NCBI RefSeq assembly: GCF_056746865.1
Contig: NZ_CM163382.1
DNA: 64,000 nucleotides
Direction: 5' to 3' (one strand)
The notes under the pieces are model-generated. The model was not told the DNA's origin. It ran no database searches and saw nothing but the letters and a program-made list of their open reading frames with translations. A program made the position numbers and the translations under genes. This document shows positions 36,650-43,358 of this stretch, one piece after another; position 1 is the stretch's first letter, and each line of letters begins with the position of its first letter.

Positions 36650-36739
36650 GTTAATATTCCTTTTGCTTTCAGAGATAAGCTAATAGTTAACCTACCCAAT
36701 ACACAACAGAAGCAGATATTAATATTCGTATCAGTAGTT

Positions 36740-36845
36740 CCCAGAGGGATATATAACCCTCTGGGCGTCAATTAAGAAAAACGCTACTGCCTATTGTTAC
36801 ATTAGAGAACAGGATGATGTTACACAGTTACATTAGAACGTTCTA
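36740..36845. promoter_or_regulatory. Iteron/operator-like repeat cluster in a 380-bp AT-rich intergenic region
   Basis: Palindrome CCCAGAGGG-atatataa-CCCTCTGGG (36740-36765); direct repeats GTTACATTAGA(G)AAC at 36796 and 36827; 12-bp palindrome TAGAACGTTCTA (36834-36845). Confidence 0.45.
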
Positions 36846-37030
36846 AAACATTAAACAGAGTTATGATCTACACACAACTAATTATTTGGTATCAGAATAC
36901 CATTAGCTCTATTAGTACATCATATCCATCATTACACATATACTATACATCACAGATATAATATATATTACCTATCCAACGCACATGTATTTATAACTCC
37001 ATTGCCAATAGCTACAAGGACTATAAAATG

Positions 37031-37591
37031 TTACTCTGCAGTTAGATCAACAATACCTTTATCCCAGTGTCTTTTTACAGTGGATAAACTGATGCTTAAT
37101 TTTCTGGCTGTTTGTGACTGACTGAACCCCTGCAATTTCAACTGTCTGATATTTTTACTATGAATACTCCCTTCTTTCCTTCCTGGTTTTCTTTTAATTT
37201 TCCGGATACTGATGTCGGGAATTTTTCCTCTAATATCTGTAGGTAAAATCATCCCGGTGAGTACCACAGGAATATCATCACCATCCGGCAACTCTGATGA
37301 CGTAAAAAAGCAAATATTAATACCTTGTCTGATACTTAAAGATAAAACCTCCTGTATTTTTTCCGGCGTATTACCAAAACAAGTTAACGATTTAGTAATC
37401 AGAATATCACCCCTTTGCATATCCTGCGTCAGGAGTCGAACTAACCGTTTTCTGTCTGCCAGAGTATAATCCGGGCGACCCAATTCGCCTGTTAACTGCA
37501 ATAGTGGTTCTTTAAAATATCTCTGAATCATGGATTTTAAGCGATTAAGTTTTGACCATTTTTCAGAGTCTATGTATGCAAAACTCGCCAT
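37031..37591 (-). CDS. Serine-recombinase (resolvase/invertase) homolog with C-terminal HTH, lacking the catalytic residues
   Basis: Aligns to gamma-delta resolvase (GDILITKSLTCFGN vs GDVILVKKLDRLGR; C-terminal HTH ...QTARKLSISLSTVKRHW) but YARVST is replaced by YIDSEK and DR..R by TC..N. Confidence 0.6.
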   Translation of the reverse strand: MASFAYIDSEKWSKLNRLKSMIQRYFKEPLLQLTGELGRPDYTLADRKRLVRLLTQDMQRGDILITKSLTCFGNTPEKIQEVLSLSIRQGINICFFTSSELPDGDDIPVVLTGMILPTDIRGKIPDISIRKIKRKPGRKEGSIHSKNIRQLKLQGFSQSQTARKLSISLSTVKRHWDKGIVDLTAE

Positions 37592-37812
37592 AATGCCTCA
37601 AACTGGTGTCATGAATTAATTATTGAACCTGTTTTTTCCTGAGTCGCATTACTCTTTTCTAAGGGAGGCTCTCCAGATACATCGGAAAAGTACTCGATAA
37701 AAGAGTTGGCCACTCCCGGGTAATGATTGCTCTCTTTAACCTCAGAAAGCGGTTTCTGTTCATCATTTACACCACGATTTCTGGGTTATGAATAAATCTA
37801 CGCGGGCCATAA

Positions 37813-38559
37813 TCATTCATCTTCAAATGGGTTAATAATAATAACATCTCCACCTGTTCTGGAACTTTGTGAAACTTCCTCTGTTCTCAGAACAGGCACT
37901 ATTACAGCCTTATTATTGATATAAAAAATCGGAATATGAAAAGTACAAAATCCTGTACTACGAATCTGATGTCGCCTCACTGTTTCTTTCGTACCATACT
38001 CAATCAACTCATCTATCGGCAGGCAAACTGAATTGCAAAAGTCAAAAAAATAATCCCCAAAAACACTGGTTTTAATCAGAATGGTTTTATAAAACCCTCC
38101 TGCACGATTCAGGGTATGGGAAACTTTTCTGTTCGTGTAAATACAAATTGCCTTCTCAACTTTATAATATTCCAGCATTAAGGTCGCATTCTCTTTAATT
38201 CCCTTTTTCTCTGCAACTCCCATAGCATTTCTGGTGCTTTCATGAGGAAATATCTTTCTATCGAGAACATCATATTCATATTTGATATGCGATTTATAAA
38301 TGCTATGAAAAAACTCTCCTTTTGTTATTTCAGGCTTTGTCCGTTGCACAAATGGTTCCTCATTAAAAAACTGACGTAGCTTATCCTCTATATCAGTTAT
38401 AGCAGCAATATTTTCATTTATCCTGTTTAAAACAGGAGCCCCTAGCTTTAAACACTCTTTAATCGCTGCTGAAAATGAGCATTTTTTTAAATGCTGATAC
38501 TTTTTAATTACATCAGCTTCATATGTTTCTGCAAGAGAGAAAGAGACACGTTTCATCAT
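37813..38559 (-). CDS. Hypothetical protein with N-terminal ribbon-helix-helix-like domain (248 aa)
   Basis: N-terminus MMKRVSFSLAETYEADVIKKYQHLKKCSFSAAIKECLKLG has the beta-strand/helix pattern of RHH (CopG/Arc) domains; the remainder is unassigned. Confidence 0.45.
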   Translation of the reverse strand: MMKRVSFSLAETYEADVIKKYQHLKKCSFSAAIKECLKLGAPVLNRINENIAAITDIEDKLRQFFNEEPFVQRTKPEITKGEFFHSIYKSHIKYEYDVLDRKIFPHESTRNAMGVAEKKGIKENATLMLEYYKVEKAICIYTNRKVSHTLNRAGGFYKTILIKTSVFGDYFFDFCNSVCLPIDELIEYGTKETVRRHQIRSTGFCTFHIPIFYINNKAVIVPVLRTEEVSQSSRTGGDVIIINPFEDE

Positions 38560-38621
38560 GAAACTCCTTTTTAATTATAAAATTAAAATATAGAAATATA
38601 TATTATTCTGATACTATAAGG

Positions 38622-38849
38622 TTAATACTGACTAATCCACCACAATAGATCACTTAATAACCACCCACAGGATTTCTTTCCAATAGTTTTACGTGGCGGG
38701 AATTTTCCTTCACGTTCCAGTTTCCAGGCTTGTGAACGAGAAATAGACGTAATTTTCTGGCGTTCCTTTTCTCGTACCAGTCTGTCACAGGTGTATCCAT
38801 AGATCTTCAAAATTGATAAACGGTTCTCATCTCTTAACGGCTTCCACAT
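38622..38849 (-). CDS. AlpA-family prophage transcriptional regulator
   Basis: ...ITSISRSQAWKLEREGKFPPRKTIGKKSCGWLLSDLLWWI matches the AlpA pattern (SRSTIYRL..GKFP.P.KLG.RSV.W...V..WI). Confidence 0.65.
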   Translation of the reverse strand: MWKPLRDENRLSILKIYGYTCDRLVREKERQKITSISRSQAWKLEREGKFPPRKTIGKKSCGWLLSDLLWWISQY

Positions 38850-39628
38850 ATTGCTCTCCTTATATATTCATGATTTTCAGATTGTATATGCATGTGAGCT
38901 GCTCAAATCACTACATCTATCTGTAGTGGTATGCTGTTGAACAGCACCAGCAACTCACGAGCAAAACAATACATTTGCACAACCAAGAAATCAAATTGCG
39001 AGAAATGATTTAATTAACTGACTTCTAATAACACAATAACAACAAAGAAAGTCACAATATAAAAATAACTTAAACAATGCTTTTTGGTATACAAAATAAA
39101 AATCAAAATCACAATATTCGTAGGTTATTTTATGCAGACAAAAACAAAAAAAATCTTGTTATAATCTATGATATCAAGAGGAGGGGTAGTGACCAAAAAT
39201 TCTCCCCAGAAAAGCCCCCACAACATTAGTTTGAAAACGTGACGAAGTTCACAAAATTATCTTCTGGCGATAATAGAACTTGTAAGAGGGAGTTGATTTT
39301 TGCCAACTTTCTAAAGCTAAAGTGCAGACAAAAGATAATAATTGAATGAAAACGATACATATTTTCAGATGAAAGTGACGTGACTGTAGAGGGCTATAAC
39401 CGTAAAATCATTTGCGTCCTGAGCAATATGCAACAAAAGGGAATGCTCGTAAAAAAATCAGGAATAAACGCTAAGGATATCGTATTAGATTCAGCATCGT
39501 ATAATGCCACTGCATAACTGATTCCCATTTCGTAGAGGCTGTTAACTCTGTATCAATGTCCTGACAAAGGACTGTATCAAGTTTCTCTACTGGAAACAGC
39601 TATGCAATAGACGGAAGAATTTAACATT

Positions 39629-41233
39629 ATGGTAACTAAAAAGGTAAAAACAAACCACCCGTACTATCGTGTTTTATCCGGCACCTCCATGCCGTTTCCC
39701 CACATACATGAAGCTGTTTCCGAACAGTTGCTTCTACTCATTTTCAAAGCACGCAGATTGTATCTGGATCCAGAATATCGTCCTTGGTTTGATGAACAAC
39801 ATCGGATTCTCTCGGCATTACGCGCTAACACAAAACTCCAAAGTATTTTAGAGAAAAACAGAGAGAACTACTCCATAAGTGAGACCGATAATCCACTATC
39901 TAAAGATCTGTATGCTGCTTTTCAGGTTATGTGCCATTTATACAATGGTTTTGATAACAGACTCGTCAGCCTGAAAACCTGGGGAGATATGAACAGGGAA
40001 CCAACAGCAAAATTTGTCGGCCAAAATAGTGGTGGCTGGAAAACACCTGAGATGGAAGAATTCGTCAGAAACGATTTGTTCAATATTCTGACAGATTGTA
40101 AAGCTCATTGCTCACCACTTCCCGCTCTGGTTCGACAAGGATATTGCCATCAGGATCTTTCTGTTGCGCACTCATGTACTAAAGAATTACTGGAACAACT
40201 GAACCGATACCATCAAATTGATGAATCAGCGATACTTGCCAGAACCCTTGGTTTGGCTATTAACAACTGCTATCACTCAGAAACAGAGATTCCTGAATGG
40301 CTTTCTCCTTTTGAAAATGAATACAAAAGTCCCTGGAATTGTGAGAAACCAGATACTAACGATGTGAGTAAACTTAGAAAACAATTGCTAACAATCGGGC
40401 GTACAGAATTCGTGGACAAAATGTTTTCGCTAGCCAACAAAAATGCAACAAAGATAATATATGATGGATACGTTAAACTTTATGCTCTGGAAATATATGA
40501 ATGGTTAAATAAATTAGTGCAATATTTTAAAGGAAATGATTTTATTCGTTACACCTGGAAGTTCACAACAATTATTTCCGATGAAAGTGACACGATTGAA
40601 AACACCACCGCATGGGAAAAAGACTATTGTCAAATCACTATACAGCGTGATGAACTTCTGAAACTGATTTATACCAATACCCTGCAGGATGCAGCAATGA
40701 ATCTTGCTGATTGCCTGCAACAGGCATACACAGAACCGTTAAAAATGGAAATAAATTATCCAGGAATAAACATTGATGCAAAAGAGCGTAAAATTAGAAA
40801 ATCTATTGAATTCAGGAGCGAACTGAATAACTTCACAAACATCATGAAACAACTGGAAATATTTGAAAAATGGTATAACGCCAATAAAATTCTGTTGGTA
40901 AGTAACAAAAAGATACGTACAGAAAAGATTGACGTGAATATTCGTCTTGCAGGACTAAAAGGCTATGATCTGAATGAAGGTATACCTGATGGTCAGGGAC
41001 GCAGAATTAAAGATGGTGTAAATGAACTTGTCAAGGCAGATGGCAGTCTACAACTTCCACAAGATATCAGTGACACTTCGCTTAACCGTTACCGTCAAGC
41101 AGTTCAACACATTATTAAGGATGAGATCGACACGTTGCTGATAGCACAGAGGGAAAAAAATAAAATAAATCCATATAGCGAAGATAGATACTCGATACGA
41201 CCTTTATGGGGAAAATGTCTGGTCGAACAGTAA
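39629..41233 (+). CDS. Hypothetical protein (534 aa), AT-rich, in the integrase-proximal cargo slot; function unknown
   Basis: Long ORF with SD GGAAG upstream; no recognisable catalytic motifs apart from a possible R-x4-H (RQAVQH) near the C-terminus. Confidence 0.6.
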   Translation: MVTKKVKTNHPYYRVLSGTSMPFPHIHEAVSEQLLLLIFKARRLYLDPEYRPWFDEQHRILSALRANTKLQSILEKNRENYSISETDNPLSKDLYAAFQVMCHLYNGFDNRLVSLKTWGDMNREPTAKFVGQNSGGWKTPEMEEFVRNDLFNILTDCKAHCSPLPALVRQGYCHQDLSVAHSCTKELLEQLNRYHQIDESAILARTLGLAINNCYHSETEIPEWLSPFENEYKSPWNCEKPDTNDVSKLRKQLLTIGRTEFVDKMFSLANKNATKIIYDGYVKLYALEIYEWLNKLVQYFKGNDFIRYTWKFTTIISDESDTIENTTAWEKDYCQITIQRDELLKLIYTNTLQDAAMNLADCLQQAYTEPLKMEINYPGINIDAKERKIRKSIEFRSELNNFTNIMKQLEIFEKWYNANKILLVSNKKIRTEKIDVNIRLAGLKGYDLNEGIPDGQGRRIKDGVNELVKADGSLQLPQDISDTSLNRYRQAVQHIIKDEIDTLLIAQREKNKINPYSEDRYSIRPLWGKCLVEQ

Positions 41234-41315
41234 CTCACTGAGAAAGGGGATAGCAGTTCGCTATCCCCAAAGGAGACTTTCCAGCAAGATCTCAAAAAAT
41301 GAGACACTCAGCAAA

Positions 41316-41942
41316 TTATGCGGCTTTACCATTAACAGATTCAGCCACAAGAACGACAGCGTGTCTGTTTCGCTCAGGATGTTCACTCCAGATTTCTGAT
41401 TCCGGGATGCTTTTCCCGTCATAACTGATCCGTTCGCCATCAAACGGGTAATACCGTGCGGAATCAGTATCTAAAATAAACACCTTCAGATTCGTTGAAC
41501 GACGCGCAATATGCTGCCAGAGAGCTTTACCTCCTTCATATTGCTCGTTATCACTTAATAGTACAACGCCCGCTTTTGTGACTATCGTTTCATAAACAAA
41601 CGTTGCAAGACCAACATCACGTACAGCGCCATCGACAACAATCCCTTCAATCTGAGCAACATCCTGTTCTTCCCAGAATTTCTGGACAAACACGCCTTCA
41701 AGCCGGGGACGACGCTGAAGCTCCAGAGTGGCAACAACCTTATGGCGAACATCACCATCAATAACAGAAGGTGCAGCTTCGATTACCGCAGCAAACGGAG
41801 TCTTTGGATCCCAGATGATCTGGTAAAGCACGCCCTGAATAGTTACTCCATCCAGTATCGAAAAACGACGAGCTACAGTAGCAGGGGAGTAAGACATTGG
41901 AATTACAGCCATTTTTGAATCCCCTCTGAGTAATACCGGCAC
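41316..41942 (-). CDS. Hypothetical protein (198-208 aa); GTG start at 41942 or ATG at 41912
   Basis: ORF convergent with the 534-aa gene; both candidate starts have an SD; no family recognised. Confidence 0.5.
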   Translation of the reverse strand: MPVLLRGDSKMAVIPMSYSPATVARRFSILDGVTIQGVLYQIIWDPKTPFAAVIEAAPSVIDGDVRHKVVATLELQRRPRLEGVFVQKFWEEQDVAQIEGIVVDGAVRDVGLATFVYETIVTKAGVVLLSDNEQYEGGKALWQHIARRSTNLKVFILDTDSARYYPFDGERISYDGKSIPESEIWSEHPERNRHAVVLVAESVNGKAA

Positions 41943-42041: not shown

Positions 42042-43358
42042 TCACCTTCTGCCAAACAGATTGACAACATTATTGCCTGTTTGCTGTTGATAGTTATTAA
42101 CCCGGTCCTCCCAGATCTCAAGTGCTCTGCGTTTTTCTGGCAAATAATCGTATCGATCATAATGTTTTGAACTGACATCGTTCAACGCATGATTTTGAAT
42201 ACGATCGCGGATTTCCTTACTGATCCCAGCTTCTCCCATTAACGTTTTACAGGTCCGACGTAAGTCACGTGCTGTAAAAATTTTAAAGTCAGGATTAAAA
42301 GCCCGGAAATACATGATAGCGCGAGCCAGACTGTCCGTACGAACCGGACGCTTACCATTAGTCGAAAGTGGAAAAATGTAAGGGCTGGATTTTTCTTTTG
42401 TTAACTCCTGCACACAGGATAATTCCTGTAATGCTGATTCAGTCAACGGTATCAAATGCTCTCGTTTATTTTTAGAGACATCAGCAGTCACCAGCAGCGT
42501 TTTTTGTTGAAAATCAACATCACACCACTGACTGGCGATCATTTCGAAAGGACGTTGCCCTCCGGTATAGATACAGAATCGGATCAAATGTTGCATCAAT
42601 AATCCAACGTTGGTTGCTTCAGCAAAATGTTCCATTAGAAAACGCAACTCTTCAAGTGTCAGCCAGGTATCACCGACTTTTTCAGCAGATGACTGTTTCG
42701 GTATCACTGACACCGGATTTGCCTCCAGCCCAAAAGTAATCCCTACACTTGTGTTCATCGGATCGTTATCTGCTTTCAGTCCATAGTTAAATGCAGCCAT
42801 CAGGTAAGAACGGATCCGGTTAGAGTGAACCACAGCACCGCGCTGAATGATCCCGGCCAGGATATGTTTAATCTGTCCGGAAGTCACATCTTTAGCTTTA
42901 GTTTCACGGGGGATCACTGTATAGCATTCATTTTCAAGGCGTTTCAGAACATCCTGCCATGTCCTCTTATTATCAATTTTCATTTTGTTAACATAACCAT
43001 GAATCAATGCTTCAAATGAGCCCTGTGATTGATGGAGTTGTATCCGCTGCTGTTCTGCAAACTGTTGTCGTTCCAGTTCTGCCTGGGGATCCTTTCCTTC
43101 AATGAGCCAGGCACCATACTTTTTTGTCAGTTCATTCGCTGTGGCCAGTTTCATCTCAGGCCATATACCCAATTGAATGAATCTTTCTTTTTTCCCTTTT
43201 TCCACGTAATAGCGGAAATAGAAAATCTTGCTGCCAGAAGGCTGAACTTTGACACCAAGTCGTCCAGTGCCACGTTGAGAGCTGTTGCTCCAGACATAGA
43301 ACGATGTCTTTTTTGCTTTCAATGCTCGGATGGCTGTTTCAGTAAGATTGACGGCCAT
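42042..43358 (-). CDS. int: P4-type tyrosine integrase
   Basis: 438-aa protein with N-terminal arm-binding domain (KIFYFRYY...) and C-terminal tyrosine-recombinase domain; adjacent to the tRNA-derived attachment core. Confidence 0.85.
   Translation of the reverse strand: MAVNLTETAIRALKAKKTSFYVWSNSSQRGTGRLGVKVQPSGSKIFYFRYYVEKGKKERFIQLGIWPEMKLATANELTKKYGAWLIEGKDPQAELERQQFAEQQRIQLHQSQGSFEALIHGYVNKMKIDNKRTWQDVLKRLENECYTVIPRETKAKDVTSGQIKHILAGIIQRGAVVHSNRIRSYLMAAFNYGLKADNDPMNTSVGITFGLEANPVSVIPKQSSAEKVGDTWLTLEELRFLMEHFAEATNVGLLMQHLIRFCIYTGGQRPFEMIASQWCDVDFQQKTLLVTADVSKNKREHLIPLTESALQELSCVQELTKEKSSPYIFPLSTNGKRPVRTDSLARAIMYFRAFNPDFKIFTARDLRRTCKTLMGEAGISKEIRDRIQNHALNDVSSKHYDRYDYLPEKRRALEIWEDRVNNYQQQTGNNVVNLFGRR

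Follow-up and report, generated by a model that had tools for sequence, protein, structure and literature searches.

The locus analyzed here raises the question of why a rare orphan gene carried on a genomic island of E. coli is preceded by several hundred base pairs of DNA in which no gene is found. In the window (the whole stretch of 64,000 nucleotides that was analyzed), this gap covers positions 38850–39628 (779 bp) and separates alpA from the orphan cargo gene that it serves. The alpA gene (38622–38849, minus strand) reads away from the gap and encodes a 75-aa AlpA/Vis-type HTH protein (Pfam Phage_AlpA PF05930, E = 2.5e-14), for which the RefSeq product name is 'helix-turn-helix transcriptional regulator'. 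The cargo gene (39629–41233, plus strand) encodes a 534-aa protein and is followed by a gene for a 198/208-aa protein (41316–41942, minus strand) and an integrase gene (42042–43358, minus strand). The host DNA is an E. coli chromosome, and the gap sits at the integrase end of a low-G+C, CP4-57-like island of ~35 kb that lies between tRNA-Ile (ileX) and nfeF. This island also carries a type I restriction-modification system, Ag43, an antirestriction gene, RadC, and CbtA/YeeU; near the gap are a gene for a 248-aa protein, a gene for a 186-aa HTH protein (37031–37591), two YagK/YfjJ ('inovirus Gp2') genes, and IS elements. The G+C content of the gap is 34% overall and 30–37% in 300-bp windows, compared with ~55% in the flanking core genes. 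The gap is also the longest in the annotated neighborhood, which bears out the preliminary description of an unusually long, AT-rich, gene-free interval ahead of the 534-aa gene. Among 5426 complete E. coli genomes, 259 carry the gap at an identity of at least 95%, and RefSeq places no annotation within it in any of these 259.

Comparisons among related islands indicate how much of this DNA has been maintained. Type A is the island of the window; types B (L004, L019, L027, and L042) and C (L006, L028, L030, L036, and L043) occupy the same chromosomal site and encode cargo proteins that are 57–61% identical to that of the window. Between types, nucleotide identity is ~97% for the integrase and 198-aa genes, ~77% for alpA, and ~70% for the cargo gene, compared with 20–47% for the gap interior, which is unalignable; over the whole gap, type A shares 50% identity with type B or C, and types B and C share 59%. 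Among the six type-A islands, 5.3% of the gap columns vary, compared with 4.0% at the 4-fold degenerate sites of the flanking genes. A hypervariable, A-rich, low-complexity patch (38921–39150), with CAAAAT repeats and a duplicated AATCACAATAT motif, varies in 10% of its columns among these near-identical islands, well above the value for the 4-fold sites. The equivalent patch is also the most divergent segment when type B is compared with L042 (57–70% identity) and type C with L043 (72–82%). The near-neutral column variation and the unalignable interior together indicate that most of the gap is under little or no constraint.

Because the surrounding DNA has been randomized, the blocks that still align stand out. 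These are the region of the alpA Shine-Dalgarno (SD) sequence, an extended −10 element, a purine tract, a CRP-type palindrome, a second tract of the GGAGG type, and the last ~90 bp before the cargo ATG. On the alpA side, only the block at 38850–38920 (minus strand; the alpA SD reads CTCTCCTT on the plus strand, at ~38854–38861) can be aligned with types B and C, and one of its 71 positions (1.4%) varies among the six type-A islands. The cargo-proximal block (39541–39628, plus strand; cargo SD GGAAGAA at ~39613–39619) is 58% identical between type A and type B or C and 72–77% identical between types B and C, on a par with the cargo gene itself. The sole partial BLAST match to the gap keeps just this cargo-proximal block, adjoining an IS3 insertion. 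Taken alone, the gap is an ordinary long, poorly constrained AT-rich regulatory spacer in an acquired island. The more specific reading that we favor, and to which we would give about an even chance, is that of a composite regulatory spacer in which AT-rich filler is combined with short control elements, divergent promoters, and a probable cAMP-CRP operator. The control elements amid the filler would be the ribosome-binding and promoter-proximal region of alpA, a type-specific palindrome cluster, a sigma-70 promoter, the CRP palindrome, and the cargo-proximal region of ~90 bp.

The type-A alpA is always found with the type-A gap (257 genomes, as against 259 for the gap). An island at the same nfeF site with another cargo (Fic/DOC and a gene for a 337-aa protein) has just 92 bp upstream of alpA, whereas the gap is 690–779 bp in every island with this cargo family and 904 bp where a remote cargo homolog adjoins an alpA gene. 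These lengths indicate that the long gap belongs to the cargo rather than to alpA. The possibility that the gap is a decayed gene was rejected after four tests. Searches of the gap by tblastn found nothing significant with the small proteins encoded divergently from other family members, and likewise nothing with the family proteins, such that no decayed 5′ end of a cargo gene was recovered. The family HMM reached at best 0.1 bits against six-frame translations of the gap (−0.9 ± 1.6 in shuffles), and tblastx between island types across the gap gave nothing significant. A short stretch that seems to repeat the N-terminus of the cargo within the proximal block of type B (QTQYQRILSGDNIDF compared with QNQYYRILSGESRPF, E ~0.02) was also dismissed, as type A does not have it.

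Scans for other kinds of elements gave a similar picture. Neither tRNA nor tmRNA genes were detected in the gap or in two related gaps. Tandem and dispersed repeat scans of the gap returned only short A-rich repeats, with no iterons and no terminal inverted repeats of MITEs. Types A and B each contain one copy of the P2/P4 late-promoter dyad TGT-N12-ACA, but the two positions are not homologous, and type C has none. BLAST searches with the gap found no match among phages and a single match among plasmids, a linear Salmonella record of 11.7 kb. This record was considered as an excised island and rejected, because it also carries aer, nfeR, and nfeF and thus looks like a chromosomal fragment.

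The preliminary description had drawn attention to a strong SD sequence and to short reading frames in the gap, and these are present where it placed them, to within one base in the case of the SD tract. The tract, AAGAGGAGGGG (39176–39186, plus strand), was read directly from the sequence; it is purine-rich and lies 4 nt before the GTG at 39189, and types B and C have a purine-rich tract at the corresponding position. Micro-ORF 1 (39189–39242, plus strand) opens with this GTG and has 17 codons, or 24 in an ATG variant (39168–39242), and thus combines an SD, a start codon, and an open frame. ORF2 (39380–39517, plus strand) has 45 codons from a GTG and contains an ORF of 29 codons that opens with the ATG at 39428 (39428–39517). 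One explanation for the gap is that it encodes one or more small proteins at these two places (39189–39242 and 39380/39428–39517), whose role would be that of leader peptides or cargo partners. The strong tract ahead of the GTG and the recurrence of purine tracts in types B and C speak for this explanation, yet the reading frames themselves are at chance level. The gap holds 19 ORFs of at least 15 codons, compared with 17.2 ± 2.7 in dinucleotide shuffles, and its longest ORF has 50 codons, compared with a shuffle mean of 62.5. Two distinct ORFs are preceded by an SD, compared with 0.46 expected, and this number was reached by 73 of 1000 shuffles.

An alignment across related islands, which the preliminary description had suggested, shows that the micro-ORFs are not kept in types B and C. 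Micro-ORF 1 is interrupted there by a 20-nt deletion, and the three types share neither a reading frame nor a peptide for the micro-ORFs. ORF2 is cut short in the close relative L009 (strain VTB97432v) by a 4-nt deletion (39502–39505). The peptides of the gap matched nothing in Pfam or PHROG, and none has the hydrophobicity of a type I toxin. ORF2 does resemble, at the same residue offset, an 88-aa HTH protein whose gene is the divergent partner of a remote cargo homolog (residues 8–25 in both, 10/18 identical, a weak match with a pairwise E of 2e-4). However, this score was reached by 4 of 200 shuffles once the choice of the best of 17 queries was allowed for (p ~0.02), and the HTH protein is a singleton from which no profile can be built. 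ORF2 may be a relic. Micro-ORF 1 is accordingly judged not to be a gene and ORF2 not to be functional, and we consider a small-protein gene in this gap, as had been proposed, very improbable. A 99-aa ORF called in the type-B gap of L004 was likewise rejected, as it is absent from types A and C, lacks a plausible pair of SD and start codon, and matches no family. A second SD-like tract, AAGAGGGAG (39287–39295, plus strand), lies ~35 nt after the palindrome. Tracts of this GGAGG type follow the palindrome in types A, B, and C, with no conserved ORF downstream of them among the three, and stand directly before the ATG in other family members.

The alpA side of the gap has its own distinctive feature, a Y-shaped cluster of palindromes (38888–38966) in which an outer 10-bp stem encloses two hairpins, CACTACA-N6-TGTAGTG (38909–38928) and a palindrome centered on GCTGTT-G-AACAGC (38933–38945). 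The cluster lies 39–117 bp upstream of the alpA start codon. On the minus strand, which is the alpA sense, its predicted folding energy is −35.9 kcal/mol (z = −4.6, with 0 of 200 shuffles as good), and on the plus strand the z-score is −4.8; it is the sole strong signal of the sliding fold scan. Its single polymorphic position (38937, T/C) still pairs on the minus strand, as G.U. The cluster is confined to type A, with no counterpart in types B and C, and has no match in Rfam. It may represent a structured portion of the alpA leader or, alternatively, paired operators of the 186-aa HTH protein, which is also type-A-specific. The P4 immunity region offers a comparison, in that its CI RNA, of the Rfam C4 antisense RNA family, lies downstream of a Vis/AlpA-type gene. 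Both cases involve a non-coding control region with an AlpA/Vis-type gene in a P4-related element. However, no part of the gap matches Rfam, and the Y element is upstream of alpA and lacks detectable relatives.

A comparison relevant to the base composition of this region is the CP4-57-like prophage CP4So of Shewanella oneidensis, in which H-NS binds and silences the alpA promoter (PMC8034616). The promoter fragment in that study is 237 bp long, with sites at 104 and 183 bp from alpA (PMC8034616). The two elements share an integrase, an AlpA-type excision regulator, AT-rich DNA ahead of alpA, and a low-G+C setting gained by horizontal transfer; they differ in that the 779-bp gap is much longer than the CP4So fragment and belongs mostly to a neighboring cargo gene, and in that H-NS is here a prediction. 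The AT content of the gap is above the host average, as expected for H-NS targets in acquired DNA (30–37% G+C compared with ~55%). By analogy, the gap is probably coated by H-NS, and silencing by nucleoid proteins, as raised in the preliminary description, is plausible.

On the cargo side, a predicted extended −10 element (39157–39165, plus strand) aligns in all three types, reading TGTTATAAT in type A and TGTTATGTT and TGTAAAATT in types B and C, respectively, within DNA that is otherwise unalignable. The best PWM promoters of type B (TTGACA-17-TAGTAT) and type C (TTGACT-17-TATAAA) are just upstream of this block. The corresponding sigma-70 start in the window is predicted near 39172, ~457 nt before the cargo ATG. 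A generic promoter scan found three sites in the gap compared with 5.2 in shuffles, which is fewer than chance. The distal position of the promoter block and of the palindrome implies a long 5′ leader. The preliminary description had proposed a regulatory leader, and this proposal is upheld in part: the conserved promoter-like block and the family-wide palindrome with a CRP consensus are there, and the leader itself is implied by them. Alternatively, the cargo promoter may lie within the proximal 90 bp, in which case the long leader would be irrelevant.

A long implied leader invites a second explanation, namely that it is a structured cis-regulatory RNA, such as a riboswitch or thermosensor, or that it hosts an sRNA needed by the cargo protein. 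Some defense systems use upstream non-coding RNAs, which we count in favor of this explanation together with the strong fold of the Y-shaped element. However, that element is on the alpA side, outside the cargo leader, and confined to type A. The putative leader (39172–39640) folds with a z-score of −0.73 relative to shuffles, and 100-nt sliding windows give values near 0 in the cargo leaders of all three types, the palindrome itself excepted. No terminator is predicted on either strand of the gap. An Infernal/Rfam covariance search, also suggested in the preliminary description, found no family in the gap at E ≤ 1; at E ≤ 5, every family returned was eukaryotic or irrelevant and fell well short of its gathering score, and the same was true for the gaps of L004 and L041. 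As the gap is unalignable between types, nothing is conserved there that could fold, and covariation cannot be assessed. These results do not support the earlier suggestion of a structured RNA controlling the cargo gene, to which we now give hardly any credence. Neither the micro-ORFs nor the supposed RNA element appears to be worth pursuing.

The element that does merit attention is the palindrome cGTGA-cgaagt-TCACA (39238–39253). The classical CRP site is TGTGA-N6-TCACA, and a CRP operator that overlaps or follows a promoter can repress, as at cyaA P2 and crp. The window palindrome matches 9 of the 10 bases of this core, its one mismatch being replaced by a perfect TGTGA in strain D10. At the aligned position, types B and C (including L019, L027, L042, and L043) have a palindrome without mismatches, and perfect copies also occur upstream of family members elsewhere. 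In total, 7 of 16 non-redundant family members have a perfect palindrome upstream, compared with 0.013 expected from shuffles. Within the 64-kb window as a whole, near-matches with one mismatch are not enriched (4 compared with 1.95 expected). The arms are invariant and the 6-bp spacer varies. An RNA hairpin was considered and rejected, since it would be weak (−3 kcal/mol) and the arms do not covary. Fixed arms, a free spacer, and a weak hairpin together form the pattern of a protein-binding DNA site rather than of an RNA stem.

The position of the palindrome differs among lineages. In five of them, its center precedes the start codon by 22–29 bp, immediately in front of the SD, whereas in the island clade of E. 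coli and E. albertii, it is 311–383 bp upstream. The N-termini of the cargo-family proteins align; therefore, the start codons have not been misplaced. In the P2-prophage clade, the palindrome has decayed to a half-site, and it is absent from four remote homologs, which indicates that it is not essential to the family. Judged from this sequence pattern, the palindrome is the ancestral 5′ operator of the cargo gene family and a probable cAMP-CRP operator. It shares with classical CRP sites an identical palindromic 16-bp core, invariant arms, a free spacer, and a host range within Enterobacterales, and in most family members, where it adjoins the SD and start codon, overlap with the core promoter or the 5′ end would follow. 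It differs in its flanks, which are TTT/AAA rather than the AAA/TTT of the 22-bp CRP consensus, and in the E. coli islands by its distance from the start codon and the lack of canonical activation spacing. For CRP, a center near −41.5 or −61.5 was taken to indicate activation, and overlap with the promoter or start was taken to indicate repression. The window palindrome is at about +74 relative to the predicted start at 39172, and its spacing to candidate −10 elements fits no class I or class II activation in all three types. The location 22–29 bp before the ATG in the five lineages is compatible with promoter overlap.

As the neighboring genes differ between contexts, the factor that binds the palindrome should be either a host protein or the cargo protein itself, a host factor being the simplest choice. 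The latter possibility leads to another explanation, in which a regulator different from CRP uses the palindrome as its operator; the cargo protein, for instance, might repress its own gene. Of all gene products, only the cargo protein is shared by every context that bears the palindrome, and the TTT...AAA flanks are more conserved than is typical of CRP sites. However, the core is the exact CRP consensus, all carriers are Enterobacterales, and Pfam detects no DNA-binding domain in the cargo protein. We therefore consider such a regulator rather improbable.

A further explanation is that the interior of the gap, palindrome included, is a recombination scar left over from cassette swapping and that function is limited to ~100 bp next to each start codon. 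The near-neutral or faster evolution of the interior, the mismatch in the window palindrome, and a proximal block conserved at the level of the gene are all consistent with this explanation. Hotspots of P2/P4-type elements are reported to be full of short intergenic recombination remnants (bioRxiv 10.64898/2026.02.27.708500), and this also counts in its favor. In contrast, a pure scar does not readily accommodate a palindrome and a −10 block that are at aligned positions in three types amid randomized DNA, nor a palindrome that is intact in B-like and C-like variants differing by ~10% over the rest of the gap. Moreover, neither the cargo family nor its partner genes have left a detectable remnant in the gap. 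On balance, a pure scar seems somewhat unlikely.

Returning to the composite regulatory spacer, we infer transcription starts, binding proteins, and a sign of regulation from the anatomy of the gap, its conservation pattern, and the family-wide palindrome. The cargo gene would be transcribed from the distal promoter region, giving an mRNA leader of ~380–460 nt. Binding of cAMP-CRP to the palindrome would lower transcription, so that expression would follow carbon status. Control of an immune system by CRP has a precedent in the type I-F CRISPR-Cas system of Pectobacterium (PMC4499141). In most family members, where the palindrome would overlap the core promoter or 5′ end, bound CRP would act as a repressor; in the E. 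coli island, where it would be inside the leader, it may act as a roadblock or be partly vestigial. With H-NS coating the AT-rich tract, basal expression of alpA and of the cargo gene would stay low. The palindrome is one short, testable element, found with a rare orphan family in mobile elements of several kinds. If cAMP-CRP binds it, an uncharacterized accessory gene would be tied to carbon status, and this would point to growth conditions in which to look for the function of the cargo.

The family of the 534-aa protein is tiny and found mainly in Enterobacterales; grouping at 90% identity gives 20 clusters, and a set of 1.84 billion proteins contains 42 representatives. Its members occur in diverse settings, including the interval between gpS and gpV of a Klebsiella P2-like prophage, viral contigs in which they are beside umuDC and SRAP genes, an ICE-like region, and a three-gene islet adjoining mnmE. 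Outside the island, the cargo gene is 269–375 bp from small divergent genes that encode an acidic 145–150-aa protein, a 78–88-aa HTH protein, or a strikingly conserved Gly/Ala-rich protein of ~100 aa. Accessory-gene cassettes ('morons' or defense genes) are described, in the portions of two studies used here, as occupying hotspots of P2-like phages, P4-like satellites, and related islands (PMC9122126; bioRxiv 10.64898/2026.02.27.708500). The likeness is twofold: a single orphan gene with its own upstream region is placed between backbone genes and swapped as a block, and the cargo family is found in a P2-like prophage, ICE-like elements, and small chromosomal islets. However, the slots described in those portions were not matched to the ones used here, which are integrase to alpA in the CP4-57-like island and gpS to gpV in P2, and the cargo gene matches no known defense family.

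There is also a bolder extension, which we offer as speculation with a low probability of being correct. The family would be a mobile cassette of one gene, sometimes three, that travels with its own catabolite-responsive operator through P2-like prophages, ICE-like elements, islets beside mnmE, and CP4-57-like islands. Displacement of the operator to more than 300 bp from the start codon in the E. coli island would have created the long leader, in which CRP binding, possibly with Rho or AlpA-type antitermination, would gate a new kind of gene for phage defense or exclusion. The cargo protein has no match in Pfam or PADLOC. One remote homolog is flanked by a pPIWI_RE_REase gene and a HEPN gene, and this neighborhood suggests that the family may be involved in phage defense.

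The island that carries the 534-aa orphan gene (39629–41233, plus strand; hereafter the cargo gene) is CP4-57-like and spans tRNA-Ile (ileX, beside mug) to nfeF, corresponding to approximately 6000–43600 of the window (compared locus L014; NZ_CP032989.1, 662472–697015). Its integrase lies at the tRNA-distal end, and the interior contains IS3 and IS5 insertions, a DMSO-reductase operon, and a type I restriction-modification system. These features indicate that the island is probably composite or rearranged. Between island types (type A, the window; types B and C, sister versions of the island), identity switches from about 97% to about 70% at the 3' end of the cargo gene (41245–41300). The variable block (36700–41290) extends via alpA as far as the YagK/YfjJ gene, where identity returns to 95%. 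Based on these boundaries, alpA, the gene-free interval upstream of the cargo gene (38850–39628), and the cargo gene itself diverge or are exchanged as a single cassette.

Hypervariability falls in the same A-rich, low-complexity section of the interval in all three island types, namely 38921–39150 in the window, interval positions 133–292 in L004 (type B), and interval positions 172–330 in L006 (type C). In type A, this patch evolves faster than 4-fold degenerate sites. Slippage or patchy recombination could account for the pattern. Also in the interval, 39–117 bp upstream of alpA, is a Y-shaped cluster of palindromes (38888–38966), in which a 10-bp outer stem encloses two hairpins. The predicted folding energy of this cluster is −35.9 kcal/mol (z = −4.6), a value equalled by none of 200 shuffles, and an Rfam search of the segment returned no match. 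Comparison of the island types showed that the cluster is confined to type A. One candidate reading is a leader structure of alpA; the other is a set of operators for the type-A-specific 186-aa HTH protein (37031–37591). At the other end of the interval, type-B islands have an in-frame open extension in the 90 bp leading up to the cargo ATG (5908–6000 in L004, with equivalent positions in L019 and L027), and an in-frame stop is found at this position in type A. The extension encodes QTQYQRILSGDNIDF, which is similar to the N-terminus of the cargo protein itself, QNQYYRILSGESRPF, and may represent a short tandem duplication of the cargo 5' end or an alternative start.

The module of alpA, interval, cargo gene, and 198-aa gene is also present in a tRNA-Thr island adjoining proA in E. 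coli L73 (L043; NZ_CP033378.1), where the cargo gene is frameshifted. The sites of this module are thus not confined to nfeF. A further copy of the interval, with 100% identity to that of the window, is found in the Salmonella enterica "plasmid" pIndS102_4 (L002; CP101363.1). This record is linear (11,755 bp), contains aer, nfeR, and nfeF in addition to island genes, and has the appearance of a fragment of an E. coli-type chromosome deposited as a plasmid. An excised circular island is disfavoured by the linearity of the record and the presence of these three genes.

The orphan family of the 534-aa protein is very small, with 42 representatives among 1.84 billion proteins. In addition to the window gene, members were found in L007, L016–L018, L024, L034, and L038–L041. 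The predicted structure is all-alpha, and its comparison with solved structures gave no match. Family members occupy accessory positions in P2-like prophages (the gpS/gpV gap), ICE-like regions, mnmE-adjacent islets, and integrase-AlpA islands. Several loci encode on the minus strand a Gly/Ala-rich protein about 100 aa long (L017, 4344–4667; L018, 2274–2588; L039, 1891–2217; L040, 1261–1560), with 75–85% identity across loci. Divergence from the window protein is far greater for the cargo proteins of these loci, two of which share 37 and 33% identity with it. The Gly/Ala-rich gene is recurrently divergent from the adjoining cargo-family gene, often together with a small gene of 78–88 aa (HTH-like in L038 and L039). 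This recurrence suggests a two- or three-gene system, which is absent from the E. coli island. Finally, one remote family member is flanked by pPIWI_RE_REase and HEPN genes.
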